A stretch of DNA of 64,000 nucleotides from Gammaproteobacteria bacterium (GTDB taxonomy: Bacteria; Pseudomonadota; Gammaproteobacteria; Pseudomonadales; JADFDG01): positions 471 to 64,470 of the forward strand of contig JBKHWA010000044.1 in the NCBI GenBank assembly GCA_046566765.1, read 5' to 3'. The translations under genes were made by a program, and so were the position numbers. Within the stretch, counting starts at the first letter, position 1. Each line of letters starts with the position of its first letter. The notes beneath the pieces were generated by a model, which was given only the letters and a program-made list of their open reading frames with translations, was not told where the DNA came from and ran no database searches. Below are positions 11,678-51,945 of this stretch, piece after piece.

Positions 11678-11850
11678 TGCGCTCCCTGGATTGCGCTTCC
11701 CGGATCCGGGTGCCGGATCGGGATTGGTTGCAGCGCCGCAACGGTGCGGCAGCGCTGCCATGACACGCCATGGTAGCCGACTATAATGGCCGCCGCCCGC
11801 GCGGGCCGCATGCCGTCCCGCCCGCCCCGTCCGCATCACCGGAGTCATGC

Positions 11851-21184: not shown

Positions 21185-21843
21185 TGTTCAGCCTCGACAA
21201 CGCCACGGTGAGTTACGGCGGCAAGGCCGTGCTCACCGGGGTCACGCTGGCGATCGCGCGTGGTGAAAAAGTCGCGCTGGTCGGCGAAAGCGGTGCCGGC
21301 AAGTCAACGCTGCTGCGGCTGCTGCGCGCGCAGCAACCGGCAGACGTTGCCTGGTGCCCGCAGGCGCAGGCCGGCGGGCTGGTGCCGCTGCTGAGCGTGT
21401 TCCACAACATCTACATGGGGCAGCTGGATCGCCACTCGACGTTCTACAACCTGCTCAACCTGCTGGCACCGCGCGCGCAGGAAGTGCAGGCGGTGGATGC
21501 AGTGGCGACCCCGCTCGGGCTGGCCGACAAGCTGTTCACCTCGGTGGATCGCCTGTCCGGCGGCCAGCAGCAGCGGGTGGCCGTCGGCCGCGCGCTGTTC
21601 GCCGGCAAGCCGGCCTTCCTCGGCGACGAGCCGGTGTCGGCGGTGGACGAGTACCAGGCGCGCGACATCGTGCGGCTGGTCACGTCCTCGCACCGCACGG
21701 TGGTGCTGGCGCTGCACGATATCGAGCTGGCGCTGGCGTCGTGCGACCGCATCGTCGGCCTGAAGGACGGCGTCATCGCACTGGACGCCGCGGCGGCCTC
21801 GTTGACGCCTGCCGACCTCGCGCCGCTCTACCGTCGCGCATGA
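21184..21843 (+). CDS. ABC transporter ATP-binding protein
   Basis: MFSLDNATVSYGG starts at ATG 21184, overlapping the upstream TGA (TGATG). Walker A GESGAGKST, signature LSGGQQQR, Walker B FLGDEPVSAVD. Confidence 0.85.
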   Translation: MFSLDNATVSYGGKAVLTGVTLAIARGEKVALVGESGAGKSTLLRLLRAQQPADVAWCPQAQAGGLVPLLSVFHNIYMGQLDRHSTFYNLLNLLAPRAQEVQAVDAVATPLGLADKLFTSVDRLSGGQQQRVAVGRALFAGKPAFLGDEPVSAVDEYQARDIVRLVTSSHRTVVLALHDIELALASCDRIVGLKDGVIALDAAAASLTPADLAPLYRRA

Positions 21844-23345: not shown

Positions 23346-23411
23346 CCGGTGGCCGGGCCTTTCCCGGCCCCGGCCGCCGCCCCTATAGTCGGCGCCAGCA
23401 AAGGAAACCGC

Positions 23412-25658
23412 ATGGATCACGCGATGCGTCGACTCACCCTGGCCTGCCTGCTGGGCAGCCTGCTGCTCGCCCTGCCGGCCCTGGCCGCCGGACCCGCCAA
23501 CCGCAACCTCGCCATCACCGCCACCCAGCCGCAGCAGATGAAAAGCGAGCAGCGGCTGGCGCTGGTGATCGGCAACGGCAACTACGCGAAGGGCTCGCTC
23601 GGCCAGAACCCGCTCAACGATGCGAAGGACATGGGCGCCGCGCTGGAACGCATGGGCTTCCAGGTGATCCTGCTCACCGACGCCGGCAAGTCGCAGATGA
23701 AGGAAGCGGTGTACCGCTTCGGCGAGCAACTGAAGAACGGCGGCGTCGGCCTCTTTTTCTACGCCGGCCACGGCGTGCAGATCCGCGACCAGAACTACCT
23801 GCTGCCGGTGGACGCCCGCATCCGCAACGAGTCGGAAGTGGAAGACGAGAGCATCGGTCTCAACCGCGTGATGCAGGCCATGGACAACGCCCGCAACCGG
23901 CTGAACATCGTGCTGCTCGACGCCTGCCGCGACAACCCGTTCACGATGCAGGGCTCGTTCCGCAGCACCCGCGCCGGTTTTTCCAAGGTGGAAGTCGGCG
24001 ATTCCGCCACCGGCATGGTGATCGCCTTCGCCACCGCGCCGGGAAAGACCGCGGCCAACGGCAACAGCCGCAACGGCCTGTGGACCTCGGCGCTGCTCAA
24101 TGCCATGAACGGCAACGACACCCGCATCGAGAGCGTGCTGAAGGCGGCGCGCGGCACGGTGCGACAGAAATCCGGCGGCGCCCAGGTTCCCTGGGACGCG
24201 TCGTCGCTGGAGGGCGACTTCTGGTTCAACCGCGCGCAGATCCAGGGCGCGGCCACCGCCGGCAGCGCCACGGCCGCGGGCACCCCGGCGCCGGTGCCGC
24301 GCGGCACGCTGCAGTCGATCGAGTTGCCCAGCGGGCTGACCCTGGCGGACTGGGTGGGCATGAACCGCGATGCGACCTCGGCGACCGTGATCGAGGAAGC
24401 GCTGGGCTACCTGGACAAGTACGGCGCGTTTCCCGAACTGGTGGCGATCGCCGCCCGCGGCGTCGGCAGCAACCTGAAGTCGCTGCCGCTGCGCGGCGCC
24501 GGCGACGCCCGCGCGCTGGTCGACAAGTCGCGGCCGGCGCTGCGGCGGCCGGCGCTGGCCCCGGACGCGGCGAGGATCGTCACCGACCGCCTGCTGCTGC
24601 TGGCCACGCCGGAACGCGAGGCATTGGCCACCGCCGCCGTGTTGCGCGACTGGCGCCAGGCCGCCGCCGCGCAACTGGACGACAGGCAGCGGCTGGCGCT
24701 GCTGCGGCGGGAAGCGATGGTCTGCCACGGCGGCGCGCAATTCGACTGCGCGGCCAGCGCCTACAAGGCGTGGCTGAAGGAAGCCGGCGCCAGCCATCCC
24801 GAGCGCCCGCAGGTTGCGCAGGACCTGCTCAGGGCCAACCAGCACGAAGTCATGATCGGCGGCGTGGTTGCCGGCGCTTCCTTCAGCGACTGCGCCGGTT
24901 GCCCGGAACTGGTGGCGGTGCCGGCCGGCCGGTTCACGATGGGCGTACCGCCACCGGCGATCCCGCGCTCGAAACTGCGCGAATCGAAGTTCCGCGAAAG
25001 CCCGGCGCGCGAAGTCACGATCGCGGCATTCGCCATCGGCCGTTTCGAGGTCACCTTCGCGCAATGGGACGAGTGCGTGGCCGGCGGCGGCTGCAACGGC
25101 CACACGCCCTACGATTCCGGCTGGGGCCGCGGCAACCGCCCGGTAGTCGACATCAGCTGGGACGAGGCCCGGCAATACCTGCAGTGGCTGTCGAAAAAAT
25201 CCGGCAAGCGGTATCGGCTGCCGAGCGAGGCGGAGTGGGAATATGCGGCGCGCGCCGGCACCACCACCCGCTTCCACACCGGCGACTGCATCACCACCGC
25301 GCAGGCCAACTTCGACGATCGCAACACGCAGGCGATACCGGTGCCGGGCTGCCCGCGTTCCGGCATGGCGCGCGGCCAGACCAGCCCGGTGGGCAGCTTC
25401 GCCGCCAACGCCTTCGGCCTGCATGACATGCATGGCAACGTCGAGGAATGGGTGCAGGACTGCCGGCACATCGACTACCAGGGCGCGCCGCTCGACGGCA
25501 GCGCACGGGAAGACAACGACTGCTTCCGCCGCATGGTCCGCGGCGGCTCCTGGGACCAGGGCTCCCAGGCCTTGCGATCGCAGGACCGCAGCATCGACCT
25601 GCCGTCGAATACCCGCGCGCCGACCCTCGGCTTCCGCGTCGCCCGCGATCTCGAGTGA
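23412..25658 (+). CDS. secreted caspase-like (peptidase C14) protease fused to a C-terminal FGE/SUMF1-type domain
   Basis: ORF 23349..25658, start at ATG 23412 (or 23424). Signal peptide LLLALPALAAGPA. C14 dyad contexts FFYAGHGVQ and NIVLLDACRDNPF. C-terminal FGE-sulfatase fold motifs (RLPSEAEWEYAARAG, GLHDMHGNVEEWV, RGGSW, LGFRVARD). Confidence 0.85.
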   Translation: MDHAMRRLTLACLLGSLLLALPALAAGPANRNLAITATQPQQMKSEQRLALVIGNGNYAKGSLGQNPLNDAKDMGAALERMGFQVILLTDAGKSQMKEAVYRFGEQLKNGGVGLFFYAGHGVQIRDQNYLLPVDARIRNESEVEDESIGLNRVMQAMDNARNRLNIVLLDACRDNPFTMQGSFRSTRAGFSKVEVGDSATGMVIAFATAPGKTAANGNSRNGLWTSALLNAMNGNDTRIESVLKAARGTVRQKSGGAQVPWDASSLEGDFWFNRAQIQGAATAGSATAAGTPAPVPRGTLQSIELPSGLTLADWVGMNRDATSATVIEEALGYLDKYGAFPELVAIAARGVGSNLKSLPLRGAGDARALVDKSRPALRRPALAPDAARIVTDRLLLLATPEREALATAAVLRDWRQAAAAQLDDRQRLALLRREAMVCHGGAQFDCAASAYKAWLKEAGASHPERPQVAQDLLRANQHEVMIGGVVAGASFSDCAGCPELVAVPAGRFTMGVPPPAIPRSKLRESKFRESPAREVTIAAFAIGRFEVTFAQWDECVAGGGCNGHTPYDSGWGRGNRPVVDISWDEARQYLQWLSKKSGKRYRLPSEAEWEYAARAGTTTRFHTGDCITTAQANFDDRNTQAIPVPGCPRSGMARGQTSPVGSFAANAFGLHDMHGNVEEWVQDCRHIDYQGAPLDGSAREDNDCFRRMVRGGSWDQGSQALRSQDRSIDLPSNTRAPTLGFRVARDLE

Positions 25659-32955: not shown

Positions 32956-34098
32956 ATGCGCCCACCCGTCAAACGCACCAAGAGACTGCTGGCCACCAGC
33001 CGCCGCTACCTGCGCAACGCCGTCACCCGGCGCACCAACCCGCGGGCATTCCAGAAAAACGACCTGACGCCGCATGGCGAGATCCTGCGCGAAGGGTTGC
33101 TGGCGGTGCGCCACTATCCGCGCCTGCACACGCCGGCGATCGTCACCGAGGGCGACCAGGTCCCCGTCAGCAACCTCCGCCACCGGCTGCCGCTGGTGCT
33201 GGTGCCGCCGCTGGGCGTGCATGCCTGGGTATTCGACCTGCTGCGCGAGCGCAGCATGGTGCGCTACTTCCTGGCGCGCGGCTTCGAGGTCTACGTGATC
33301 GACTGGGGCGCGCCCGGCGCCGAAGACTACGACATCTCGCTCGACACCTACGTCAACCGCTGGTTCCCGCGCGCACTCGCCGCCATCCGCAAGCACAGCG
33401 GCCAGCAGGAACTGTCGCTGCTCGGTTACTGCATGGGCGGCCTGCTGTCGCTGCTGTACCTCGCCACCGGCCGCGACACCGACGTGCGCAACCTTGCCAC
33501 CATCGCCAGCCCGATCGACATCCACGCCGGCAGCGCCGGCGGCCGCATGCTGGGCATTCTCAGCAAACCGGCGATGGCACTGCACAACCGCTTCGGCGTG
33601 CGACTGGACGTCTTCGCCGACCGCAACCGCTTCCACCTGCCCGGCTGGATGGTGTCGCTGGCATTCCGCGCGATCAACCCGCCGGGCAGCGTGCGCGCCT
33701 ACATCGACATGGTGCGCAACCTCGCCGACACCGAGTACGTCACCGAGTACATGAGCATGGCGCAGTGGTTCACCGACACCCCGGACTATCCCGGCGGCGT
33801 GGTGCAGGACATCGCCGAGAAATTCGCGATCGCCAACCGCATGGCCGAGGGCAAGATGATGATCGGCGATGCCGACATCGACTTCCGGCGCGTGCGCGTC
33901 AACCTGTTCGCCGTCGCCGGCGACACCGACCGCATCGTGCGGCTGGAGTCGGCGCGCCACATCCTCGACGTGGTCGGCAGCGAGGAAAAGACGTTCATCG
34001 TCGGGCCCGGCGGCCATGCCGGCGTATTTGCCGGCGGCCGCGCGCCGGCGGAAGTGTGGCGACCGATCGCCGACTGGCTGGGCCAGCGTTCCGGCTAG
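32956..34098 (+). CDS. alpha/beta hydrolase with PHA-synthase-like Cys nucleophile box (class III/IV PhaC-like)
   Basis: 380 aa. Lipase-box variant LLGYCMGGLL (G-x-C-x-G-G as in PhaC). Downstream candidates for the catalytic Asp and His are GDTDRIV and GPGGHAGVF. Confidence 0.7.
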   Translation: MRPPVKRTKRLLATSRRYLRNAVTRRTNPRAFQKNDLTPHGEILREGLLAVRHYPRLHTPAIVTEGDQVPVSNLRHRLPLVLVPPLGVHAWVFDLLRERSMVRYFLARGFEVYVIDWGAPGAEDYDISLDTYVNRWFPRALAAIRKHSGQQELSLLGYCMGGLLSLLYLATGRDTDVRNLATIASPIDIHAGSAGGRMLGILSKPAMALHNRFGVRLDVFADRNRFHLPGWMVSLAFRAINPPGSVRAYIDMVRNLADTEYVTEYMSMAQWFTDTPDYPGGVVQDIAEKFAIANRMAEGKMMIGDADIDFRRVRVNLFAVAGDTDRIVRLESARHILDVVGSEEKTFIVGPGGHAGVFAGGRAPAEVWRPIADWLGQRSG

Positions 34099-36453
34099 TC
34101 AGTTCGCCCCGGCGGCGAAGATCCGCGCCAGCAGCGCATCGAGGTCCGCCGCGCGCACCGGCTTCGGCAGGTGGGCGTTCATGCCGGCGGCCAGGCATTG
34201 CTCGCGGTGCTCGCTCAGCGCGTCGGCAGTCACCGCGATCACCGGCAACGGGCGGCGGCGCTTCGCAGCTTCGTCGGCGCGCAGCCGGCGCGTCACTTCC
34301 AGCCCGTCGATGCCCGGCAGGTTGCGATCCATGAACACCGCGTCGTAATCGCGGGCGGCGATGTAGCGCAACGCGTCCTCGCCGCTGGCCACCAGGTCCA
34401 CCTCGAGGCCACAGCGCTCGAGCAGCCCGCGCATCACCAGCTGGTTGACGGCGTTGTCCTCGCACACCAGCACGCGGCGACCGCGCCACTGCCGGATCGA
34501 TGCTGCCGCCGCCAGGTCCTCGCCGGGCAACTGCACCGCGTCCAGCGGCAACGACACGGTAAAGGTGCTGCCCTCGCCAACGCGGCTCGCCACCGAGATG
34601 TCGCCACCCATCAACCGCGCGAGATCGCGGGCGATGGTCAATCCGAGGCCGGTGCCGCCGCGCCCGCTCGCACCGCGGCCACCCACCTGGTGGAAACTCT
34701 CGAACACCGCGCCCAGCTGGTCCGCCGGGATGCCGATGCCGGTATCGCTCACCTGCAGCAGCAGGCAGCGGCCGTCCGGCGACGACTGTGCACGCAGCCG
34801 CACCGAGCCGCGGTCGGTGAACTTGATCGCGTTGCCGAGCAGGTTGAGCAGCAACTGCCGCAACCGCACCGGGTCGGCGCGGATCGCGGTCGGCAGGTCA
34901 TCGCCGTACTGCAACACAAGTTCGAGGTCGCGCTGCGTTGCCACGCCACGGAAGGTATCGACCACCCCGGCCAGCAGCGGCCGCAATGCCACCGGCTGCA
35001 GGCGCAGCTCCACCCGGCCGGCCTCCAGCCGCGCGGTATCGAGCACGTCGTCGATCACGGTGATCAGCGAGTCGGCCGACTCCTGCACCGTGCGCAGCAT
35101 CCGCTGCTGCTCGCTGTCCAGCGGCGTGTCACGCAGCAACTCGACCAGCCCGACCACCCCGTTCATCGGCGTGCGGATCTCGTGGCTCATGTGCGCCAGG
35201 AACTGCGACTTCGCCTCGGCGCGCGCCTGCGCCATCGCCGCATCGCGCAGCGCCGCATCGCGTTCCAGGTTGACGCCACGGATGCGGTGCGCCAGCGCGA
35301 ACGACATCAGGATCACTTCCGCCACCTGCCCCAGTTTCACCGCATTCAGCGCCAGCCCGGTGGGCGGCAACACGCCGTGGTTGGCGAGGATGGTGACGGC
35401 GACGCCCACCAGCGTCGCGCCCCAGGCGATGTTGTAGAACAGCGCCGGCCGGTGGCCCTGCAGCGCCGCGAGGATGCCGGCCAGCACCACCACCGGGATG
35501 GTCACCAGCGCCAGGAAGTCGACGAACATCACCAGCGCGCGGCCATACCAGGCCGCGGTGGCCAGCAGGCCGATGGCGTAGACCACGAGCAGGCCACGCA
35601 GCACCCGGTGCAGGCGCGGCAGCCGTTGCTTCGTGCCGAGGAAGATCATCGCGAACCAGATGGTCGCCGCGCCGGCGGCGTACACCGCGAACGGGTAGGC
35701 GCGGTGCTTGAGCCAGACGTTGTCGCCCAGCGCGAGGTAATGCCAGCCGTCGACGGTGAGCACGCAGGTGAAGATCGCGAGGATGGCGGTGCAATAAGCG
35801 AGGTAGCTGCGGTCGCGGATGCTGAAGAACAGGAACAGGTTGTAGACGAACAGCGTGCCCACCACCGCACCGTAAAGCACCAGCAGCAGGTGCTCCTGCT
35901 CGCGCCAGCCGGCGAACGACAGCGGCGTGTCGACCCGCACCGGCACCACCATCGACGACTGCGACCAGACGCGCAGGAAGAACGTCGACTGCTCGCCGGG
36001 CTGCAGCGTGACCGGGAACACCGCCTGCGGGAACGCTTCCTGCCGGTTGGCCGCCGGCGCCATCCGGCCCTGCGGCGGCCAGGCATGCACCGCATCGCCG
36101 TCGACGCGGAACAACTGCACGTCGTCCAGCGTCGGCTCGGCGACGACGATGCGCCACTCACCCGGCCGGTCGCTGTCATTGGCCAACTCGAAACGCTGCC
36201 ACCAGGCCGCGTCGGAAAAGCCGGGCGCCAGCGGCGCCGAATCCGCCGGCGCGAACTGCCCGGCCGCAGCGGCCCGGCGCGCCTCGTCGATGGTCATGGT
36301 GCCGCCGAGATCCTGCAGCCAGGCCAGGCCGGCGGCGGGCAGTTCCGGGGATTCCTGCAGTGTCGACAGCGCCACCGGCTGCGCCGCCGCCGGCCCGCCC
36401 GCCAGGGCGAGCAGGAGCAGGAGCAGCCATCCATCCATGCGCAGCGTCGTCAT
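34099..36453 (-). CDS. hybrid sensor histidine kinase with 7TMR-DISM-type periplasmic and 7-TM input, HisKA, HATPase and receiver domains
   Basis: 784 aa. Signal peptide, a periplasmic domain of about 170 aa and seven TM helices. H-box [16 protein letters not shown]-boxes DTGIGI and GTGLGL, and a C-terminal REC ([11 protein letters not shown]...[14 protein letters not shown]). Confidence 0.9.
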
Positions 36454-36661: not shown

Positions 36662-37666
36662 ATGCGCCTGTTTGCCGCCACCCTCACTGCCCTGGCCCTC
36701 ATCGCCGGCTCGTCGACGGCCTCGGCCGCGATGGTCAAGCGCTCGGTCTGCGTATTCGACATCGTCGGCTCGCACGGCGACCTGTTCAACGCCATGAAGG
36801 ACTACCGCATCGAGGCGATGAAATGGGGTGTCGACCTCGAACTCCGCCCGTACACCAACGAGAAGATCGCCGCCGAGGATTTCAAGGCCGGCCAGTGCGA
36901 TGCCACCAACCTCACCGGCCTGCGCGCCCGCACCTTCATCCCGTTCGCCGGCACCATCGACTCGGTCGGCAGCGTGCCGAGCGTCGATCACATGCGACTG
37001 CTGATGCAGGCGGTAATCACCCCGACCTACGCTCCGAAGCTCAAGAGCGGCCCGTTCGAGGTCGCCGGCATCGCGCCGCTGGGCTCGGCCTACATCTTCA
37101 CCCGCGACCGCACCGTCAACAGCCTGACCAAGGCCTCCGGCAAGCGCGTGGCGGTACTCGACTACGACAAGTCGCAGGCGCAACTGGTCGCGCAGATGGG
37201 CGCCTCGCCGGTGCCGTCGGACATCACCAACTTCGCCGGCAAGTTCAACAACGGATCGGTCGACATCATCGCCGCGCCGCTGGCCGCCTTCAAACCGCTC
37301 GAGTTGTGGAAAGGACTGGAACCGAAGGGCGGCATCATCAATTACCCGTTCCTGTTCCTGACCGTGCAGTTCCTGGTGCGCGAGGACAAGTTCACGCCGG
37401 AGTTCAAGCAGAAGTCGCGTGAATACTTCTACGCCAACTTCGACAAGATCCTGGCCGCGCTGGACAAGGCCGCGATGGAAGTGCCGAAAAAGTACTACGT
37501 CGAGATCCCGGCCGCCGACAAGGCGCAGTACGAGACGATGATGCGCGAAGCACGCATCCAGCTGCGCACCGACGGCTATTACAACGGCGAGATGCTGACC
37601 CTGCTGCGCAAGGTTCGCTGCCGGATGGACAAGTCGCGCGGCGAGTGCTCCGACCAGCTTGAGTAA
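36662..37666 (+). CDS. periplasmic putative solute-binding protein, paralog 1 (AdeT1/2-like family as far as I recall)
   Basis: In ORF 35927..37666, start at ATG 36662 (GGAGG upstream). Signal peptide ALIAGSSTASA. Conserved blocks are shared with the genes at 42225 and 43401 (CVFDI.G, EDFKAGQCDA, FAGKFNNGSVDII.APLAA.KPLEL.KGLEP, LLRKVRC..D..R.EC). Confidence 0.8.
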   Translation: MRLFAATLTALALIAGSSTASAAMVKRSVCVFDIVGSHGDLFNAMKDYRIEAMKWGVDLELRPYTNEKIAAEDFKAGQCDATNLTGLRARTFIPFAGTIDSVGSVPSVDHMRLLMQAVITPTYAPKLKSGPFEVAGIAPLGSAYIFTRDRTVNSLTKASGKRVAVLDYDKSQAQLVAQMGASPVPSDITNFAGKFNNGSVDIIAAPLAAFKPLELWKGLEPKGGIINYPFLFLTVQFLVREDKFTPEFKQKSREYFYANFDKILAALDKAAMEVPKKYYVEIPAADKAQYETMMREARIQLRTDGYYNGEMLTLLRKVRCRMDKSRGECSDQLE

Positions 37667-38897
37667 TGCCCTGCCGGCCCGTCAGCGACGGGAAGACGCG
37701 GCGCGGGAACTGGCAGCACGACTCGCCACCACCGCGCCGCTCTGGCGTCCACCCTGCTTTTACGACGATCCGCCGTGGATCGCCGGCCATCCCCGCCTCG
37801 CCGCCGCCCTGCTTGCGCTCGGCGACGGCGAACTCGCCTCGCTCGAGGACGATCCCGATACGCTGACCCGCTGGCTGGCGGACGCGCTGCCGGCAATCGG
37901 CACGCTGGTGACCGCCGCCGATGCCTGCCTCGACGACGACACGCTGCCGGTGCCGCTGGCGGTACCGGAAACGCACGGCCGCGACGTACCCGGCCGCAAG
38001 TGGCAGCAGGCACTGGCATTCGCCGCCGCCTGCGGCGTGCCGCACGGGCCGCTGGTGGACTGGTGCTGCGGCAAGGCCCACCTGGGGCGGCTGCTGTCGC
38101 AGTTGCACGGCGTGCCGGTCACCGGGATCGAGCGCAACCACGCGCTGTGCGTCGACGGCAACGCGCTGGCCGCGCGCGACCGGTTGCCGGTGCAGCTGGT
38201 GGAAGCCGATGCGCTCACGGTGAGCGCGCCGGACGCACGCCTCGACCACGCCGCCCACGCTGTCGCCCTGCATGCCTGCGGCGACCTGCACCTCGCCCTG
38301 CTGCGCACCGCCAGCGACGCCGGCGTGGCGGCGCTGGACGTTGCGCCCTGCTGCTACCACCTGACCCGCGACTACCACTGGCAGCCGCTGAGCGTCGCGC
38401 TGGCCGGCTGCGCACTGCAGCCGCTGCAACTCACCCGCGACGACCTGCGACTGGCAGTGCAGGAAACGGTCACCGCCAGCGCACGGGTGGTCGCGCAGAC
38501 CCGGCAACTGGCCGGCTGGCGGCTGGGCTTCGACGCGCTGCAGCGCGACGTGCGCGGCATCGACGCCGCGCTGCCGACACCGTCGCGGCCGGCACGGGTG
38601 CTGGCCGATGGCTTCGCCGCGTTCTGCGCCGACATGGCCGCGCACCACCGGCTGCCGTTGCCGGCGGGCGTGGACTACCCGCGGTTCGAGCAACTGGGCA
38701 GCCGGCGCCAGGCGCGCATGCGGCGCCTGCAACTCGTGCGCCACGCCTGCCGGCGCCCGCTGGAAGTGCTGCTCGCCGCCGACCGTGCGCTCTGGCTCAC
38801 CGAGCGGGGTTACCAGGTGCAACTCTCGCCGTTCTGCCGGCGTGAACTGACGCCGCGCAACCTGTTGCTCCGGGCGCGCCGCCGGTCCGCGGCCTGA
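37659..38897 (+). CDS. SAM-dependent methyltransferase-like protein (Methyltransf_32-type core)
   Basis: 412-aa ORF. The only in-frame start near the 5' end is TTG 37659, which overlaps the upstream stop by 8 nt, so the start is uncertain. Core DWCCGKAHLGRLL...GIERN...HACGDLH resembles the PF13679-type methyltransferase domain. Confidence 0.65.
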   Translation: MSNALPARQRREDAARELAARLATTAPLWRPPCFYDDPPWIAGHPRLAAALLALGDGELASLEDDPDTLTRWLADALPAIGTLVTAADACLDDDTLPVPLAVPETHGRDVPGRKWQQALAFAAACGVPHGPLVDWCCGKAHLGRLLSQLHGVPVTGIERNHALCVDGNALAARDRLPVQLVEADALTVSAPDARLDHAAHAVALHACGDLHLALLRTASDAGVAALDVAPCCYHLTRDYHWQPLSVALAGCALQPLQLTRDDLRLAVQETVTASARVVAQTRQLAGWRLGFDALQRDVRGIDAALPTPSRPARVLADGFAAFCADMAAHHRLPLPAGVDYPRFEQLGSRRQARMRRLQLVRHACRRPLEVLLAADRALWLTERGYQVQLSPFCRRELTPRNLLLRARRRSAA

Positions 38898-38977
38898 TGC
38901 ACGGGCGGCGCGCCGCCGCTAGGGTTGCACCCGGATTCCCCGCCGACCGCACACGACTGCATACGACCGGAGCCACC

Positions 38978-40372
38978 ATGCCGCGATCCGACCCGTCGCG
39001 ATCCACCCTCCCGCAGGACCCGTCCCGTCGCCGCCTGCTGGCCATGTCCGGTGCTGCCGCCGGACTGGCGCTGCTGCCCGCCGCCGTCCGCGCCAACCCG
39101 CCGGCGCCCGGCTGGCGCAACTGGTCCGGCAACCAGCAGGCAACGCCGGCGGCGATCCACTATCCCGCCAGCGAGGCGGAACTGGTGCAGGCAGTGAAGA
39201 ACGCGAAGGCGCCGCTGCGCGCCGTCGGCGGCAGCCACTCGTTCACCGCGCTGGTGCCGACGCCCGGCACGGTCATCTCGCTGGAGCAGATGAACGGGCT
39301 GATCGACCACGACCCGAAGACGCAGACCGCCACCCTCGGCGCCGGCACGCGCATCGCCGTGGCCGGCGAGTTGCTGGCGGCAATCGGCCAGGGCCTGCAG
39401 AACGAGCCCGACATCAACCTGCAGTCGCTGGCCGGCGCGATCAGCACCGCCACCCACGGCACCGGCGCCGCGCTGCAGTGCCTGTCCGGCTACGTGACGA
39501 AACTGAAACTGGTGCTGGCCGACGGCAGCGTCGTCACCTGCTCGGCGGATAAAGACCGCGAACTGTTCGACGCCGCCCGCGTCTCGTTCGGCAGCCTCGG
39601 CGTGATCAGCGAGATCACCTTCCGCAACCGCGCCGCCTACAAGTTGCGCGAGGAGACGGAGGTGATGGATCTCGCCGCCGCCATGCAGCACATCGAGCAG
39701 CGTCGCCACGTCGACCGCCACATCGAGTTCCTCGCCTTCCCTTTCGGCGGCAAGGCGATCGTCAAGCGGATGAACATCACCGACGAGGCCGACACGCCGC
39801 CGGTGGAATCCTCGATCGACGAGAACCAGCTGGTGGAACTGGCCGCCGATACCGTGAAGGCGGCGCCGTTCACCAAGGGCATGATCCAGAAGCTGGTCGG
39901 CGCCTTCGTCAGCGACGGCCACCGGGTCGGCCCGTCGCACCGGATTTTCCCCAACGTGCGCTCGGTTCCGTTCAACGAGATGGAATACACGGTACCGGCC
40001 GACCAGGGGCTGGCCTGCCTGCAGGAAGTGGTCGACACCCTGCGCGCGCGCGACATCGCCACGTTCTTCCCGATCGAGTTCCGCTACATCGGCGCCGACG
40101 ACACCTGGCTGAGCCCGTTCGCCGGGCGTGACGGCGCCGCCATTTCCATCCACCAGTACGCGCGCCAGGATTACCGTGAATTGTTCGATGCCCTCGAGCC
40201 GATCCTGAAGAAATACGATGGTCGCCCGCACTGGGGCAAGTTGCACACGCTCACGGCGAAGGACCTGCGCGAACGTTACCCGCGGTTCGACGATTTCCTC
40301 GCCGTCCGCCGGCGGGTCGACCCGCGCGGCAAGTTGCTCAACGATCACCTGAAATCGCTGCTGGGCGCCTGA
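38978..40372 (+). CDS. Tat-exported FAD-linked oxidase of the D-arabinono/L-gulono-1,4-lactone oxidase family
   Basis: ORF 38897..40372 trimmed to MPRSDPSRS (ATG 38978). Twin-arginine signal SRRRLLAMSGAAAGLALLPAAVRA. FAD_binding_4-like VGGSHSF, and the C-terminal ALO-type motif HWGK (GRPHWGKLH). Confidence 0.85.
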   Translation: MPRSDPSRSTLPQDPSRRRLLAMSGAAAGLALLPAAVRANPPAPGWRNWSGNQQATPAAIHYPASEAELVQAVKNAKAPLRAVGGSHSFTALVPTPGTVISLEQMNGLIDHDPKTQTATLGAGTRIAVAGELLAAIGQGLQNEPDINLQSLAGAISTATHGTGAALQCLSGYVTKLKLVLADGSVVTCSADKDRELFDAARVSFGSLGVISEITFRNRAAYKLREETEVMDLAAAMQHIEQRRHVDRHIEFLAFPFGGKAIVKRMNITDEADTPPVESSIDENQLVELAADTVKAAPFTKGMIQKLVGAFVSDGHRVGPSHRIFPNVRSVPFNEMEYTVPADQGLACLQEVVDTLRARDIATFFPIEFRYIGADDTWLSPFAGRDGAAISIHQYARQDYRELFDALEPILKKYDGRPHWGKLHTLTAKDLRERYPRFDDFLAVRRRVDPRGKLLNDHLKSLLGA

Positions 40373-40404
40373 GCGCGCCGGCACCGCCAGCGGAAATCCC
40401 ACGC

Positions 40405-41691
40405 ATGAAGCGACGTCATGTCCTGATCGGCCTCGGTGGCGCCGCGGTGGTGGCCGCCGGCGGCCTGGCGCTGCGCCCGTCCGACCGCGGTGCGCCGCAC
40501 GATGACTACTTCCGCGCGCTGCAGTCGCTGCTGCAGGCACAGGGGCCGGGCCGGCCGGTGCTGCTGCTGGACCTCGACCGCATCGACCGCAACTGCGACC
40601 GGCTGAAGCAGGCGGTGGCCGACAACGGCAAGCAGTTGCGCATCGTCGCCAAGTCGCTGCCGGCGCCGGGGCTGCTGCGCCACGTGCTGGCGCGCACCGG
40701 CAGCACACGGGTGATGACCTTCCACCAGCCGTTCCTCAACGCGCTGGCCACCGGTTTCCCGGCGCTGGACCTGCTGCTGGGCAAGCCGATGCCGGTGCGC
40801 GCGGCGGAAACCTTCTACCGCGAGCTCGGCACCGGCAGCGCGTTCGCGCCGGCGCGGCAATTGCAGTGGCTGGTCGATACGCCGGAACGCCTGCAGCAAT
40901 ACCGGCAACTGGCGCGCACGCTCGGCACCCGCATGCGCATCAACGTCGAGATCGACGTCGGCCTTCACCGCGGCGGCTTGTCGGCGCCGGAACAACTCGA
41001 CCCGTTGCTCGCCGCGATCGCCGACGACCCCGACCATCTCGAGTTCGCCGGCTTCATGGGCTACGACGCGCAGGTCGGCAAGATCCCGTCCGTACTGGAA
41101 AGCCGCGATGCCTCGCTGGCGAAGGCACAGGCAACGTATCGCGCATTCATCGCACGCGCGCGCGCCCTGCAACCCGCGCTGGCCATCGAACAACTCACGC
41201 TCAACGGCGCCGGCAGCCCGACCTTCCGCCTGCACGGCAAGGACTCGCCGCTGAACGAGGTGGCCGTCGGCTCGGCGCTGGTGAAACCGACCGATTTCGA
41301 TCTCGACCTGCTGGCCGACTTCGAGCCGGCGGCCTTCATCGCCACGCCGGTGCTGAAGGCGCTGGATGGCCTGCAACTTCCCGGCAGCGATGCGCTCGGC
41401 CGCGGCTGGGCGCTGTGGGACGTGAATCGCCGGCGTACGTTCTTCGTCTATGGCGGCAAGTGGCTCGCCGATTTCGTGTCGCCGGCAGGCGTCACCGGCA
41501 ACACGCTCTACGGCAGCAGTTCCAACCAGTCGATCGCCAATGCGTCGGCGTCGGTGCAACTGGCAGTCGACGACCAGGTGTTCCTGCGGCCGACCCAAAG
41601 CGAAGCCGTGCTGCTGCAATTCAGCGACCTGCTGGCAGTGCGCGGCGATCGCATCGAGGCACGCTGGCCAGTGCTGCCGGCCAGCGTGTAA
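40405..41691 (+). CDS. fold-type III PLP enzyme (alanine-racemase N-terminal domain; DSD1/D-threonine-aldolase-like) with Tat-like or anchor N-terminus
   Basis: 428 aa. N-terminus MKRRHVLIGLGGAAVVAAGGLALRP. Candidate PLP-Lys context LRIVAKSL. NVEIDVGLHRGG is typical of this fold. C-terminal beta domain. Confidence 0.72.
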   Translation: MKRRHVLIGLGGAAVVAAGGLALRPSDRGAPHDDYFRALQSLLQAQGPGRPVLLLDLDRIDRNCDRLKQAVADNGKQLRIVAKSLPAPGLLRHVLARTGSTRVMTFHQPFLNALATGFPALDLLLGKPMPVRAAETFYRELGTGSAFAPARQLQWLVDTPERLQQYRQLARTLGTRMRINVEIDVGLHRGGLSAPEQLDPLLAAIADDPDHLEFAGFMGYDAQVGKIPSVLESRDASLAKAQATYRAFIARARALQPALAIEQLTLNGAGSPTFRLHGKDSPLNEVAVGSALVKPTDFDLDLLADFEPAAFIATPVLKALDGLQLPGSDALGRGWALWDVNRRRTFFVYGGKWLADFVSPAGVTGNTLYGSSSNQSIANASASVQLAVDDQVFLRPTQSEAVLLQFSDLLAVRGDRIEARWPVLPASV

Positions 41692-41850
41692 TTACCCACC
41701 GGATTCGTCGGGAATGGCGGTAACAACGCGCCCGAATGGTTCCCGTTTGTGCGCGAATGTCGGCAGCGGACACCCGGAATACTGACCACGATCAAACTGT
41801 CTTTTTCCCGCTGTGGTGAGATGAGCCACGGGAAATCGATGGAGGTGTTT

Positions 41851-42039
41851 ATGGACGTGGTAATGGCTGATCTGTTCGGCTCTCTTGGTGGCCTGTTGAC
41901 CGTGTTCATCATCGCGGTTTGCGCGCTGGCAATGCCGGTGGGCATCTACCTGGCGATGAAGCACGCGGTGAAATTCTCCCAGGAGCAGGACCGCCAGGCG
42001 GCGCTCAAGCGCCAGCACGAGGGTCACGGCAGTCACTGA
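41851..42039 (+). CDS. small (62 aa) single-TM protein, hypothetical
   Basis: In ORF 41749..42039. ATG 41851 has GGAGG at 41841-41845. One TM helix (LLTVFIIAVCALAMPVGIYLAM) and a basic C-terminal tail. Followed by its own terminator. Confidence 0.45.
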   Translation: MDVVMADLFGSLGGLLTVFIIAVCALAMPVGIYLAMKHAVKFSQEQDRQAALKRQHEGHGSH

Positions 42040-42070
42040 CCTGTCCTGACCCGAAGGGGTATTGCCAGCA

Positions 42071-42108
42071 ACGCCCGCCCGGACAACCCCGGGCGGGCGT
42101 TCTTGTTT
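42071..42108 (+). terminator. rho-independent terminator
   Basis: Sequence is acgcccgcccgg-acaacc-ccgggcgggcgt followed by tcttgttt. 12-bp perfect stem. Confidence 0.65.
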
Positions 42109-42224
42109 GCGGCCCGGCCAGTTCCACCGGTCGTTCCGGCCATGGCAGGATGCGCCGGACCGCCCACAATGGCGGGCCACCCCGGGTCCCCGGGGTCATA
42201 ACAAGAACTACCCCGAGGCACCCG

Positions 42225-43313
42225 ATGCGTACCACCCGCCTGCCTGCCGGCGTTGCCGGCCTGTCCGCCCTGCTGCTCGCCGCGGGCCTGTTCACCACCG
42301 GCCTGTTCGCCGCCGGCCCCGCCCGCGCCGAGTTGCCCACCCCGACCATCGCGCCGCCGGCACAGGTGCCGAAGAACATCATCAAGGCGAAGTTCTGCGT
42401 GTTCGACATCGCCGGTGCCCACGGCGACATCTTCCGCACCATGCGCGACTACCGGCTGGAGATGCTGAAGCACGGGGTCGACTTCGAACTGATCCCCTAC
42501 ACCAGCGAGAAGGTCGCCGCCGAGGACTTCAAGGCCGGCCAGTGCGATGCCGTCGACCTCACCTCGTTCCGCGCCCGCAACTTCATCAAGTTCGCCGGCA
42601 CCGTCGACGCCGTCGGCGCCCTGCCGACCCGCCAGCACGTGAAGTACGCGCTGCAGGCGCTGTCCAACCCTGCATATGCCTCCAAGCTGCGCAGCGGTCC
42701 GTACGAGGTCGCCGGCATCGTGCCGATCGGCGCCGCCTACGTGTTCACCCGCGACCGCAAGATCGACACCATCACCAAGGCCGCCGGCAAGCGCGTGGCG
42801 GTGCTCGACTACGATCCGGAAATGGCCGGCATGGTGGCCCGCCTCGGCGCCTCGCCGGTGCCGACCGACCTGACCAGCTTCGCCGGCAAGTTCAACAACG
42901 GCTCGGTCGACATCATCGTCGCGCCGCTGGCGGCCTACAAACCGCTGGAGCTGTACAAGGGCCTGGAGCCCAACGGGGCCATCATCGATTTCCCGTTCAC
43001 CCAGATCTCCGCCATGGTGATCGTGCGCCACGAGAAGTTCCCCCCGGAAACACTGCAGTTCGCCCGCGAGCAGGTGTTCCAGAACGTCGACAAGGTCTAC
43101 GAGATCCTCGACAAGATGAGCCTCGACGTGCCGAAGAAATGGTGGGTTTCCATTCCTGCTGCCGACAAGCTCAAGTACGACACGCTGATGCGCGACACCC
43201 GCATCGAGCTGCGCAACCGTGGCTACTATGACGGCGAGGCGCTGGCCTTGCTGCGCAAGGTCCGCTGCAAGGTCGACAATGCGCGCGCCGAGTGCACCGA
43301 CAAGCTCGAGTGA
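42225..43313 (+). CDS. periplasmic putative solute-binding protein, paralog 2
   Basis: In ORF 41919..43313, start at ATG 42225 (MRTTRLPAGVAGLSALLLAAG). Collinear with paralogs 1 and 3. Confidence 0.8.
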   Translation: MRTTRLPAGVAGLSALLLAAGLFTTGLFAAGPARAELPTPTIAPPAQVPKNIIKAKFCVFDIAGAHGDIFRTMRDYRLEMLKHGVDFELIPYTSEKVAAEDFKAGQCDAVDLTSFRARNFIKFAGTVDAVGALPTRQHVKYALQALSNPAYASKLRSGPYEVAGIVPIGAAYVFTRDRKIDTITKAAGKRVAVLDYDPEMAGMVARLGASPVPTDLTSFAGKFNNGSVDIIVAPLAAYKPLELYKGLEPNGAIIDFPFTQISAMVIVRHEKFPPETLQFAREQVFQNVDKVYEILDKMSLDVPKKWWVSIPAADKLKYDTLMRDTRIELRNRGYYDGEALALLRKVRCKVDNARAECTDKLE

Positions 43314-43400
43314 CATCGGCACCGCCAGGAAACAGGAACAACAACCGGCGGCAGGGGCGCCTGCAATGAAGCGCTCCCGATGCCCGACGAGGCTCTTCCG

Positions 43401-44483
43401 ATGAAGCTATTCCGGACGTTTTCCCGCGCCCTGGCCGCGACCGTTATCGCTGCCGGACTGGTACCGGCCGCCCTGGCGCTGGAAATCGGCGGCAAGGACT
43501 ACAAGGCACCGGCCGACCTGGCGGCGCCGAAGCCGGTTGCCGGGCCGGCGCTGAAGCGCAAGTTCTGCGTCTGGGACATCGCCGGCACCAACGGCCCGAT
43601 CTACAGCGCGATGTCGGACCTGCGGATCGGCATCCTGCGTTTCGGCATCGACTTCGAACTGGTGGCGTACACCAACGAGCGCATCGCCTCCGAGGACTTC
43701 AAGGCCGGCCGCTGCGATGCGGTCAACGTGATGACGCTGCGCGCGCGCAACTTCATCAAGTACGCCGGCACCCTCGACGCCATCGGCGCGGTGCCCGACG
43801 AGGCGCACCTGCGGCTGGCACTGGAAGCGCTGGCCGACCCGCGCTCGGCGCCGAAACTGCGCAGCGGGCCGTACGAGGTGGCAGCATTCGTGCCGATCGG
43901 CCCTGCCTACATCTTCACCAACGACCGCAAGGTCACCTCGATCGCCCGCGCTGCCGGCAAGCGGGTGGCGGTGCTCGACGACGACCCGACGATGTCGAAA
44001 ATGGTGGCCGGCATCGGTGCCGCGCCGGTGCCGGTGAACGTCACCAACTTCGCCGGCAAATTCAACAACGGCACCGTCGACATCATCGCCGCGCCGCTGG
44101 CGGCCTACGCGCCGTTCGAGTTGCACAAGGGCCTGGAGCCGAACGGCGGGATCGTCCGCTTCCCGCTCACCTTCCTCACTGCGCAGGTGCTGGTGCGCAG
44201 CGACAAGTTCCCGGCCGACATGCTGCAGTACTCGCGCAGCCTGGTCAGCCGGCACTTCAGCTCGACCATGGAAATCCTCAACGCGATGGCCGGCGACGTG
44301 CCGGCCAAGTACTGGGTGGACATTCCGAAGTCCGACACCCTGCGCTACGAACTGATGATGCGCGAGGCGCGGATCCAGCTGCGCGAAGAGGGTTACTACG
44401 ACGGCGAGATGCTGAGCATGTTGCGCAAGGTGCGCTGCAAGCTCGATCCCAATCGCGGTGAGTGTGCCGACAAGCAGGAGTGA
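43401..44483 (+). CDS. periplasmic putative solute-binding protein, paralog 3
   Basis: ORF 43380..44483 trimmed to MKLFRTFSRALAATVIAAG (ATG 43401). Collinear with paralogs 1 and 2. Confidence 0.8.
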   Translation: MKLFRTFSRALAATVIAAGLVPAALALEIGGKDYKAPADLAAPKPVAGPALKRKFCVWDIAGTNGPIYSAMSDLRIGILRFGIDFELVAYTNERIASEDFKAGRCDAVNVMTLRARNFIKYAGTLDAIGAVPDEAHLRLALEALADPRSAPKLRSGPYEVAAFVPIGPAYIFTNDRKVTSIARAAGKRVAVLDDDPTMSKMVAGIGAAPVPVNVTNFAGKFNNGTVDIIAAPLAAYAPFELHKGLEPNGGIVRFPLTFLTAQVLVRSDKFPADMLQYSRSLVSRHFSSTMEILNAMAGDVPAKYWVDIPKSDTLRYELMMREARIQLREEGYYDGEMLSMLRKVRCKLDPNRGECADKQE

Positions 44484-45198: not shown

Positions 45199-46167
45199 CT
45201 ACTTCTTCTTCCCACGCAACGGAATCACATCCACCGGGTGATCCGCCTCCCGCCCCACATGCTTGTGGATGAAGCGGCCGATCTCGCGCACCGCTTCCTT
45301 GCCTTCCGGGATGAAGTAAGCCATCGCCTGGAACACGTGCATCATGTTCTCGTACACCGTCAGCTTCACCGGCACGCCGGCGCGCCTTGCGGCCTCGGCC
45401 ACCCGCTCGGCATCCGACAGCAGCACCTCGCGGCTGCCGACCTGGACCAGGATCGGCGGGAAGCCGGTGTAATCAGCGTAGATCGGCGACAGGAACGGAT
45501 CGCGTGGCGAGTGATCGCCGGCATAGACCCGTGCCAGGAACTTGAGCACGTTCACCGGGATGTAGGGATCGTGGTCGGCGTTGTCGTGCAGCGATTCGCC
45601 GGTGGCGCTGAGGTCGGCCCAGGGCGAGATCAGCACCGCGCCGGCCGGCAGCGGCAGGCCCAGTTCGCGGAATTTCAGCATCGATACCAGCGACAGGTTG
45701 CCGCCGGCGCTGTCGCCGCCGATGAAGATGTTCTGCGGCTCGTAGCCGCGGGCGAGCAGCCAGCGGTAGACGCGCACCACGTCCCAGATCGGCGTCGGGT
45801 ACTGGTGGTCCGGCGGCTGCCGGTAGTCGACGGCCAGCACCTTCATGCGGCCAGCCTGCGAGATGCGCCAGGTGAGGCCGCGGTGCGAGCGCGCCGAGCC
45901 GAAGAAATAGCCACCGCCGTGCAGGTAAATGAACACGCGGTCCTGGTGGATGCCGTCGGCACAGAGCACCCACTCGCAGGGCACGTCGTCGGCGTGCACC
46001 GGCACGATCTCGGCGTTGCGCGGCACCGGCAGCACCATGGTCAGCGCATCGAAGCCGAGCTGTGAAAACTTCATCAGCCGCGGCGTGAACTTCACCCGCG
46101 CCACGACCGGTTTGACGAACGTCCGCGCGGCGAAACCCAGCGCCTGTGCCTGCCAGCTCGTTGCCAT
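45199..46167 (-). CDS. alpha/beta hydrolase, hormone-sensitive-lipase-like esterase/lipase
   Basis: 322 aa. Oxyanion motif YLHGGGYFFG, nucleophile elbow GGDSAGGNL, and a C-terminal Asp and His (..SDAER.., ..MMHVF..). Confidence 0.9.
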   Translation of the reverse strand: MATSWQAQALGFAARTFVKPVVARVKFTPRLMKFSQLGFDALTMVLPVPRNAEIVPVHADDVPCEWVLCADGIHQDRVFIYLHGGGYFFGSARSHRGLTWRISQAGRMKVLAVDYRQPPDHQYPTPIWDVVRVYRWLLARGYEPQNIFIGGDSAGGNLSLVSMLKFRELGLPLPAGAVLISPWADLSATGESLHDNADHDPYIPVNVLKFLARVYAGDHSPRDPFLSPIYADYTGFPPILVQVGSREVLLSDAERVAEAARRAGVPVKLTVYENMMHVFQAMAYFIPEGKEAVREIGRFIHKHVGREADHPVDVIPLRGKKK

Positions 46168-51177: not shown

Positions 51178-51261
51178 AGACGGCAAACACCGGCTCCGGG
51201 CGGGGTTGGCGCCAATAGCCCCACGGCCCGCAGGCCAACCGCCGATTCCCGAAACGAACGG

Positions 51262-51289
51262 TTGAATTTCCCGGCTGCCGGCCAATACT
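51262..51289 (+). promoter_or_regulatory. candidate sigma-70 promoter for sodB (TTGAAT-N16-AATACT)
   Basis: -35 TTGAAT at 51262-51267, a 16-nt spacer and -10-like AATACT at 51284-51289, about 78 nt upstream of the sodB ATG. Confidence 0.3.
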
Positions 51290-51366
51290 TGGAGCCCCGC
51301 TGCCCCGGCCCGCCGGCGGCACCTGCAAGACCCCCTCATTCACCACGCCAGACCAGGAGACAGGAC

Positions 51367-51945
51367 ATGGCCTTCGAACTGCCGCCGCTTCCGTACGCCA
51401 AGGACGCGCTCGCCCCGTTCATTTCCGCCGAGACGATCGACTACCACTACGGCAAGCACCACCAGGCCTACGTCACCAACCTGAACAACCTGGTGAAGGA
51501 CACGCCGAACGCCGACAAGACGCTGGAAGAGATCGTGCTGTCGTCCAGCGGCGGCGTCTTCAACAACGCCGCGCAGGTGTGGAACCACACCTTCTACTGG
51601 AACTGCATGAAGCCGGCGGGCGGCGGCGAGCCGACCGGCGCGCTGGCCGACGCGATCAACAAGACCTTCGGCTCGTTCGCCGCGTTCAAGGAAAAATTCT
51701 CGGCCAGCGCCGTCGGCAACTTCGGCTCCGGCTGGACCTGGCTGGTGCGCAACAAGGACGGCACGCTGGAAATCGTCAACACCAGCAACGCCGGCTGCCC
51801 GCTCACCGAGGGCAAGAAGCCGCTGCTGACCGTAGACGTGTGGGAACACGCCTACTACGTCGATTTCCGCAACCTGCGCGCCAAGTACGTCGAGACGTTC
51901 TGGAACTACGTGAACTGGGACTTCGTCGCCAAACAGTTCTCCTGA
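51367..51945 (+). CDS. sodB: Fe superoxide dismutase
   Basis: MAFELPPLPYAKDALAPFISAETIDYHYGKHHQAYV...DVWEHAYY. 192 aa with AGGAGA RBS. Fe-type residues (AQVWNHTFYW). Confidence 0.95.
   Translation: MAFELPPLPYAKDALAPFISAETIDYHYGKHHQAYVTNLNNLVKDTPNADKTLEEIVLSSSGGVFNNAAQVWNHTFYWNCMKPAGGGEPTGALADAINKTFGSFAAFKEKFSASAVGNFGSGWTWLVRNKDGTLEIVNTSNAGCPLTEGKKPLLTVDVWEHAYYVDFRNLRAKYVETFWNYVNWDFVAKQFS

Follow-up and report, generated by a model that had tools for sequence, protein, structure and literature searches.

What could a periplasmic binding protein, a methyltransferase, a flavin enzyme and a pyridoxal phosphate enzyme be doing in one gene cluster? The question is raised by positions 36662-41691 of a 64-kilobase (kb) stretch of DNA, with a G+C content of about 68%, from contig JBKHWA010000044.1 of a Gammaproteobacteria bacterium; the whole stretch is called the window below. 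The first-pass annotation took the four genes for a pathway that it did not recognise as described, in which one enzyme with flavin adenine dinucleotide (FAD) and another with pyridoxal 5'-phosphate (PLP) would act outside the cytoplasm. However, the two enzymes are relatives of SphC and SphD of Pseudomonas aeruginosa, a pair that has been described genetically but whose biochemistry is unsolved. The core of the cluster is a two-gene, predicted periplasmic module homologous to sphC-sphD, and the window carries a cytochrome-less variant of it.

The conserved enzyme pair

The module consists of the following two genes.

38978-40372, + strand: SphC-like FAD oxidoreductase of the VAO/ALO family, exported by the twin-arginine translocation (Tat) system (PF01565 and PF04030, TIGR01679)
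40405-41691, + strand: SphD-like fold-type III PLP enzyme of the DSD1/D-threonine-aldolase type, 428 residues (PF01168)

Seventeen homologues of the PLP enzyme were aligned with the window protein, and the alignment was used to retrieve loci from collections with one genome per species; 80 loci were taken of about 529 confirmed relatives. The FAD gene, identified by tblastn with the window proteins, lies directly 5' of the PLP gene in 74 of these 80 loci, mostly at less than 40 nucleotides (nt) or overlapping it. The pair is found in Pseudomonas, Aquipseudomonas, Alcanivorax, Alloalcanivorax, Variovorax, Nevskiaceae, the gamma proteobacterium HdN1, Psychrosphaera and others, and this adjacency is more than chance. 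On the other hand, only one of the 80 loci (L002) has the binding protein and the methyltransferase alongside the pair. Hence the widely conserved unit is the enzyme pair and not the set of four genes, whose general conservation had been left to a survey; the other two genes join the pair in one lineage.

A small gene for a lipoprotein cytochrome c, with a lipobox and a CxxCH motif, is situated just 5' of the FAD gene in 51 loci. In Pseudomonas, the resulting order of cytochrome c, FAD enzyme and PLP enzyme matches that of the published sphBCD genes, which identifies the pair as sphC-sphD relatives, the link to PA5326/PA5327 being made through other Pseudomonas species and not by direct alignment. 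The sphBCD genes of P. aeruginosa (PA5328-PA5326) belong to the SphR sphingosine regulon and encode a Sec-exported lipoprotein cytochrome c5 (SphB), a flavin oxidoreductase (SphC) and a PLP-dependent threonine-aldolase-like protein (SphD) (PMC3900636, PMC11893366). Both sphB and sphC are needed to deplete sphingosine, sphinganine and phytosphingosine (PMC11893366). The N-termini of the FAD enzymes from the Pseudomonas loci, such as MPIHLTRRQLLQNAGIAGAFMALSSNPLAA in L035, closely resemble the Tat signal of PA5327 (SphC), MPSHLSRRQLLQRAGALGAFAAMVGNPALA, for which periplasmic export by Tat has been proven experimentally (PMC6085387). Over the full length, the window FAD enzyme is 42-46% identical to the products of Pseudomonas genes in the SphC position and about 52% identical to its Alcanivorax counterparts. 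The window PLP enzyme shows 53-61% identity to homologues encoded beside SphC-like genes, and 53-59% to those from Pseudomonas.

The neighbours of the pair in other genomes bear on the substrate. The locus of P. paralcaligenes (L049, 7954-18077) contains genes for cytochrome c, the FAD and PLP enzymes, an AraC-family regulator of SphR-type architecture, DUF1302 and DUF1329 proteins and a neutral ceramidase. The latter also adjoins the module in L017, L040 (a Pseudomonadota metagenome-assembled genome, MAG) and L044 (Variovorax). In HdN1 (L058), an alkane degrader, the gene directly after the PLP gene (11335-12684) encodes a channel of the FadL/TodX family, whose members are outer-membrane channels for hydrophobic compounds. 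Given the sphingoid-base genetics, the ceramidase beside the module in four loci and the FadL/TodX gene of HdN1, a lipid amino alcohol is preferred to a sugar lactone, and by this analogy the substrate is likely to be sphingoid-base-like. In the window, a search for homologues of SphR, ceramidase, DUF1302 and DUF1329 yielded just one AraC regulator, 24% identical and about 25 kb away. The occurrence of DUF1302 and DUF1329 outer-membrane proteins beside the triad was seen in the Pseudomonas alcaligenes group; the ceramidase gene of P. aeruginosa lies elsewhere in the genome.

Export, active sites and the electron acceptor

The FAD enzyme contains the FAD_binding_4 (PF01565, 87.6 bits) and ALO (PF04030, 204.8 bits) domains and scores 458 bits with TIGR01679 (bact_FAD_ox), against a cut-off of 292. 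Its scores with the curated lactone-oxidase models are far under their cut-offs, 206 vs 397 bits for TIGR01678 and 79 vs 458 bits for TIGR01676, the NCBIfam models for sugar 1,4-lactone oxidases and L-galactonolactone dehydrogenase respectively, and therefore the label of lactone oxidase denotes the family only. The nearest solved relatives by sequence are 8ot8, an uncharacterised FAD-binding protein, the alditol/xylitol oxidase 2vfr and L-galactonolactone dehydrogenases. The N-terminus features the Tat motif SRRRLL, an 18-residue hydrophobic region rich in Gly and Ala, and then AVRA. The first-pass annotation called this signal unambiguous, and rightly so: the motif is canonical, and the Pseudomonas homologue SphC is a proven Tat substrate (PMC6085387). 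His87 aligns with the histidine that carries covalent FAD in alditol oxidase (AldO), L-gulonolactone oxidase (GULO) and D-arabinono-lactone oxidase (ALO) (PMC11099136), and the flavin is probably bound covalently at this residue. Binding of the flavin in the cytoplasm would be consistent with export of the enzyme by Tat.

In Pseudomonas the partner of this enzyme is a cytochrome c, and its counterpart was sought in the window. Four SphB sequences gave no tblastn match in the 64 kb, and no open reading frame (ORF) with CxxCH is present upstream of the pair; the earlier remark that no dehydrogenase partner is encoded here is thus accurate. In an alignment with AldO, L-galactonolactone dehydrogenase (GalDH) and GalDH A113G, Pro144 of the window enzyme falls on Ala113 of GalDH. 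In GalDH, this alanine blocks O2, so that electrons pass to cytochrome c, and the A113G substitution turns the dehydrogenase into an oxidase (PMC11099136). At this gatekeeper position, Ala or Ser goes with an upstream cytochrome in 49 loci and Pro or Gly goes without it in 20, with 5 exceptions; by locus count the rule holds in 69 of 74. Pro144 may be taken as a hint, and a reasonable one, that the window enzyme is a true oxidase rather than a dehydrogenase, which would account for the missing cytochrome partner.

The PLP enzyme matches PF01168 (Ala_racemase_N, E 5e-20), while the Pfam D-serine-dehydratase C-terminal domain was not detected in it. Its sequence matches are D-threonine aldolases, D-3-hydroxyaspartate aldolase and D-serine deaminase, and Lys83 aligns with the lysine that forms the Schiff base with PLP in 6qkb and 7yqa. 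The AlphaFold model (mean predicted local distance difference test score, pLDDT, 86; residues 1-25 disordered) has 6qkb, 4v15, 7yqa and 7dib as the top Foldseek matches, that is, beta-hydroxyaspartate aldolase and D-threonine aldolases.

The start of this protein could have been mis-called. This is not so: in 87 of 88 homologues the protein begins with M-[KN]-R-R-x-F-L-L-G, followed by uncharged residues (median 18) and then [RK]P. The Arg-Arg pair at positions 3-4, Phe or Leu at +3/+4 and the basic residue past the uncharged stretch fit the Tat consensus, and there is no clear Ala-x-Ala site. As the latter is lacking, the segment may equally well be an anchor that stays uncleaved or a signal that is removed; with either, the catalytic domain is most likely on the periplasmic side, as judged from these N-termini. 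SphD is not among the 34 validated Tat substrates of P. aeruginosa, nor does it occur in the text or supplements of that study (PMC6085387).

The cluster and its surroundings

The other features of the region are as follows.

34099-36453, - strand: hybrid sensor histidine kinase of the 7TMR-DISM type, divergent from the cluster, candidate regulator (Pfam domains)
36662-37666, + strand: AdeT_A, binding protein of the AdeT1/2 family with a Sec signal (PF19582)
37659-38897, + strand: protein with a Methyltransf_32 domain, 412 residues, signal peptide absent (PF13679)
41851-42039, + strand: 62-residue ORF with a single transmembrane segment, final gene of the unit (conserved at the protein level)
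42070-42101, + strand: terminator-like hairpin with a 13-bp stem including 11 G-C pairs, followed by CTTGTTTG (pattern match only)
42222-43313, + strand: AdeT_B, second AdeT-family binding protein, with a signal peptide (PF19582, E 1e-94)
43380-44483, + strand: AdeT_C, third AdeT-family binding protein (PF19582, E 4e-87)

The four genes from AdeT_A to the PLP enzyme are on the + strand, with spacings of -8 nt (the methyltransferase start overlaps the AdeT_A stop), 80 nt between the methyltransferase and FAD genes and 32 nt between the FAD and PLP genes. All coordinates and sequences of the first-pass annotation check out, including the quoted N-termini of both enzymes, SRRRLLAMSGAAAGLALLPAAVRA and MKRRHVLIGLGGAAVVAAGGLALRP, and the Pfam and NCBIfam searches bear out all four family assignments (binding protein, methyltransferase, FAD enzyme, PLP enzyme). 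An independent gene call on the identical public (Logan) contig yields the same 428-residue PLP protein and the same 62-residue ORF. The latter, starting with MDVVMADLFGSLGGLLTVFIIAVCALAMPVGIYLAMKHAVKFSQEQDR, has no match in Pfam but is conserved at the protein level with ORFs in the same position in L084, L091 and L092. The transcription unit probably ends with the hairpin at 42070-42101, which is a pattern match, and terminator-like sites in this region are not in excess of those in shuffled sequence. The scan of the region for sigma-70 promoters gave 0 sites. Contrary to the statement that no regulator is encoded with these genes, the divergent sensor kinase is a candidate for this role. 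It contains the 7TMR-DISMED2, 7TMR-DISM_7TM, HisKA, HATPase_c and Response_reg domains (Pfam) and occupies the same position in L082 and L084, but is absent from L091 and L092.

The full order of the four genes is retained in six related loci, L002, L082, L083, L084, L091 and L092, although in L083 the contig ends early and only the methyltransferase, FAD and PLP genes are visible. L082 and L084 are MAGs from NCBI, whereas L091 and L092 come from JGI metagenomes. In the relatives L002, L082, L084, L091 and L092 the gene order is AdeT, methyltransferase, FAD enzyme, PLP enzyme, a PALP-family gene, a membrane ORF of 58-62 residues (in most loci) and two more AdeT genes. Both L082 and L084 additionally have the sensor kinase 5' of these genes and, 3' of them, esterase, cytochrome P450, PhyH and FadR-like genes. 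The PALP-family gene (331-334 residues) comes right after the PLP gene at 14041-15045 in L082, 14018-15016 in L084 and 7738-8733 in L091. Its product resembles 1-aminocyclopropane-1-carboxylate (ACC) deaminase and D-cysteine desulfhydrase, has the motif GGNKxRKLEF and no signal, and is cytoplasmic. The gene is also located 3' of the pair in L088 and several Alcanivoracaceae loci, and it marks the cytochrome-less clade. A remnant of it was sought at 41692-41850 of the window and none was found, just 160 nt separating the PLP stop from the small ORF; by this comparison, the window has lost this second PLP gene, which its relatives possess.

AdeT_A matches PF19582 (AdeT1_2, E 1e-93), and so the call of a periplasmic binding protein holds, with the family now specified and a Sec signal present. 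Its AlphaFold model (pLDDT 89) is best matched in Foldseek by 4nn3, a binding protein of a tripartite ATP-independent periplasmic (TRAP) transporter, with a template-modelling (TM) score of 0.75 and E 1e-16; the score with NF037995 is 34 bits, under the cut-off of 50. The protein holds four invariant cysteines, and a sequence search of the PDB with it matched no solved structure. AdeT_B and AdeT_C are, respectively, 59% and 55% identical to AdeT_A, and AdeT_B is syntenic in L082, L084 and L091. Thus three orphan TRAP-fold binding proteins are encoded within 8 kb. The TRAP membrane subunits DctQ and DctM are not found among the multi-transmembrane proteins of the 64 kb; nor did inspection of the window's membrane proteins reveal another obvious partner permease, in agreement with the earlier remark on this point.

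AdeT is linked to the FAD-PLP module solely in the lineage of the window. The Alcanivorax AdeT homologues adjoin genes for an AraC regulator, an acyl-CoA dehydrogenase, a lipase with its chaperone and components of resistance-nodulation-division (RND) systems, which weakly suggests a lipid-related ligand. In Acinetobacter baumannii, AdeT is found in the periplasmic proteome and has tandem paralogues but no established function (PMC6679007). A literature search on DUF6091 returned nothing. SphA of P. aeruginosa was considered as an AdeT-like protein, and this link was dropped, as the published description calls SphA a predicted porin.

The methyltransferase (PF13679, Methyltransf_32, E 2e-18) has no export signal. 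Its overlap or near-abutment with AdeT recurs in L082, L084, L091 and L092, and homologues with 45-49% identity in Marinobacter (L085) and L093 are found in unrelated contexts. This protein is cytoplasmic and may be a passenger.

An Abhydrolase_3 esterase gene (45199-46167, - strand) and a cytochrome P450 gene (46239-47612, - strand) converge on the cluster; in the relatives, PhyH and FadR-like genes come after these two. An alpha/beta hydrolase gene is located at 32956-34098. The esterase, P450 and alpha/beta hydrolase genes make this a lipid-metabolism neighbourhood. Elsewhere in the window, 23346-25658 (+ strand) encodes a 770-residue fusion of a caspase-like Peptidase_C14 and an FGE-sulfatase domain; directly before it, at 21354-23345 (+ strand), lies a gene whose 663-residue product is predicted to cross the membrane about nine times and matches nothing in Pfam. 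At 51178-51945 (+ strand) a Fe/Mn superoxide dismutase is encoded, the catalytic domains of which start at residue 66; either the start codon was called too far upstream, or the N-terminus is extended by a long stretch, possibly for export.

The proposed pathway, its rivals and known systems

From the homology, gene order, signal features and fold, and from the absence of the cytochrome, we infer a substrate, a series of steps and an electron acceptor. The FAD enzyme would fold with its flavin in the cytoplasm and then be exported by Tat. In the periplasm it would oxidise a hydroxyl of a lipid 2-amino-1,3-diol, for example a sphingoid base or another long-chain amino alcohol of this kind. By analogy with alditol oxidase, the primary alcohol at C1 is the likeliest target; an AldO-like oxidation of a primary alcohol whose neighbouring carbon is substituted agrees with this first step. 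D-erythro-sphingosine is (2S,3R), and conversion of C1 to a carboxylate swaps the Cahn-Ingold-Prelog priorities at C2 with the atoms unmoved. A D-erythro sphingoid base oxidised at C1 to the carboxylic acid would then become a (2R,3R) D-beta-hydroxy-alpha-amino acid, which is the type of substrate used by D-threonine aldolases; that the product is of the D-allo-threonine type would explain why a D-specific aldolase is paired with the oxidase. The PLP enzyme, anchored through its Arg-Arg and hydrophobic N-terminus on the periplasmic side of the inner membrane, would perform the retro-aldol cleavage, releasing glycine and a fatty aldehyde. Electrons would probably pass straight to O2, producing H2O2, in place of a cytochrome, given the lack of SphB and the proline gatekeeper. 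The three AdeT proteins would be lineage-specific accessories, probably shuttling an anionic lipid of low solubility, either substrate or product, through the periplasm. We assign this description as a whole, that is, sphCD-like periplasmic oxidation of a lipid amino alcohol followed by aldol cleavage, a probability of about 0.55. It retains the earlier proposal of an extracytoplasmic FAD and PLP pathway, which is still the best reading, but not the sugar lactone or polyol suggested as its substrate, for which a lipid amino alcohol is the likelier candidate.

Several points weigh against this description. The sphD gene was dispensable in the published assay, and the authors of that study note that SphB and SphC may affect sphingosine only indirectly, the product being unidentified (PMC11893366). 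In the neighbour-joining tree, the window FAD enzyme belongs to a deep clade apart from the Pseudomonas SphC proteins (42-46% identity). The loci of this clade have no ceramidase or SphR nearby and often contain the cytoplasmic ACC-deaminase/D-cysteine-desulfhydrase-like gene, and therefore the substrate could differ from that of SphC. In the PLP enzyme, the invariant Gln398 and Glu400 apparently replace the His and Asp/Cys metal ligands, by an alignment that is weak and non-significant. To our knowledge, neither enzyme family has a member with known biochemical activity, and binding proteins of the TRAP fold usually take small organic anions. As for the acceptor, the correlation between gatekeeper and cytochrome reduces on the tree to a few clade-level events. 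Moreover, the Variovorax loci L043 and L044 combine Pro with a cytochrome c gene 5' of the pair, the residue is Ala in L015, L047 and L088, where no cytochrome gene lies within 10 kb, and alditol oxidase, a true oxidase, carries Ala at this position. For these reasons the correlation is retained as a hint only; the acceptor cytochrome could also be encoded beyond the 64 kb.

The most serious competitor is that the FAD and PLP genes, possibly together with the small membrane ORF, form the entire functional unit, and that AdeT and the methyltransferase are neighbours by descent. This fits the occurrence of the pair in 74 of 80 loci, of which just L002 has AdeT and the methyltransferase, as well as the placement of methyltransferase homologues in Marinobacter and L093 among unrelated genes and of the Alcanivorax AdeT homologues elsewhere in the genome; besides, the methyltransferase lacks an export signal, whereas the enzymes are periplasmic. 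However, the order of AdeT, methyltransferase, FAD enzyme and PLP enzyme is kept while the methyltransferase identity drops to 52%, reading frames overlap or abut with no terminator between them, and every member of the lineage seen has three AdeT copies around the enzymes. We lean against this alternative without dismissing it. A cytoplasmic PLP enzyme, its N-terminus being a tether facing the cytoplasm or an artefact so that the two enzymes sit in separate compartments, seems to us very improbable. PLP enzymes are seldom exported, SphD is missing from the 34 validated Tat substrates, and no clear cleavage site follows the hydrophobic segment; but periplasmic fold-type III PLP racemases do occur in Pseudomonas and Vibrio, the partner FAD enzyme is periplasmic, the start with Arg-Arg and an uncharged segment is kept in 87 of 88 homologues, and the positive charge on its N-terminal side predicts that the C-terminal domain is outside.

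The same architecture might instead serve, as the first-pass annotation proposed, a small water-soluble substrate captured by AdeT in the periplasm, such as a D-beta-hydroxy amino acid, a serinol-like amino polyol or a sugar derivative. The TRAP fold of AdeT_A, found in proteins known to bind small organic acids and sulfonates, is compatible with this, as are the substrates of the nearest characterised relatives, polyols and aldonolactones for the FAD enzyme, threonine and hydroxyaspartate for the PLP enzyme; the clade I loci lack ceramidase and SphR, and the D-cysteine-desulfhydrase-like gene often follows the pair. Yet AdeT is joined to the pair in one lineage only and so cannot define the substrate of the module, and an uptake permease was not found in the window. 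Further, the sole genetic data on the family concern sphingoid bases (PMC11893366), many loci have a lipid context (ceramidase, FadL, DUF1302/DUF1329), with an esterase, P450 and alpha/beta hydrolases in the window, and a membrane-anchored PLP enzyme better suits a substrate that partitions into the membrane. We consider a small soluble substrate unlikely.

In P. aeruginosa, sphBCD helps to withstand host antimicrobial sphingoid bases, and according to its authors the reaction and product are unsolved. As a two-gene module, the FAD-PLP pair is widespread and occurs in the presence as well as the absence of the cytochrome; what is new here is a cytochrome-less, possibly O2-dependent form of this known but biochemically unsolved sphCD system. 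Such a form with the proline gatekeeper may be assayable with O2 alone, with no electron-transfer partner to be rebuilt. The conserved twin-arginine N-terminus of the PLP enzyme implies that both steps would be periplasmic and, if confirmed, would add PLP to the cofactors carried by Tat substrates. The AdeT family, named for supposed drug efflux in Acinetobacter, gains a concrete metabolic context. The boldest version of this proposal would make the SphD family the first Tat-targeted, membrane-anchored periplasmic PLP enzymes, and would combine them with a self-sufficient, cytochrome-free, O2-driven cleavage of sphingoid bases or related lipid amino-diols to glycine and a fatty aldehyde, and with AdeT proteins as periplasmic lipid carriers in place of transporter subunits; in this complete form we regard it as doubtful.

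Among the known systems, the closest is sphBCD, which has the same Tat-signal FAD oxidoreductase directly upstream of the D-threonine-aldolase-like PLP enzyme, both homologous over the full length. Unlike it, the window has no SphB cytochrome c in its 64 kb and no adjacent SphR-type AraC regulator, SphA or ceramidase; its FAD enzyme falls into another deep clade and has Pro rather than Ala or Ser at the gatekeeper position, and the pair is flanked by AdeT proteins, the Methyltransf_32 protein and the small membrane ORF. With AldO, GULO, ALO and GalDH, the FAD enzyme shares the FAD_binding_4 and ALO domains, the histidine for covalent flavin and the C-terminal HWGK motif, but it is Tat-exported and partnered with a PLP enzyme. 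The PLP enzyme has the fold-type III barrel, C-terminal beta domain and PLP lysine of the DSD1 family (4v15, 7yqa, 7dib, 6qkb, 3anu; TM scores 0.68-0.80), from which it differs in being just about 20% identical and in having the N-terminal Arg-Arg signal or anchor. Finally, the AdeT proteins resemble AdeT1/AdeT2 of Acinetobacter and TRAP binding proteins of the DctP type in the PF19582 domain, periplasmic location with a Sec signal, tandem paralogues and TRAP-type fold; in the window they have no DctQ/DctM partner, and the historical name of 'RND efflux pump' does not fit the fold.

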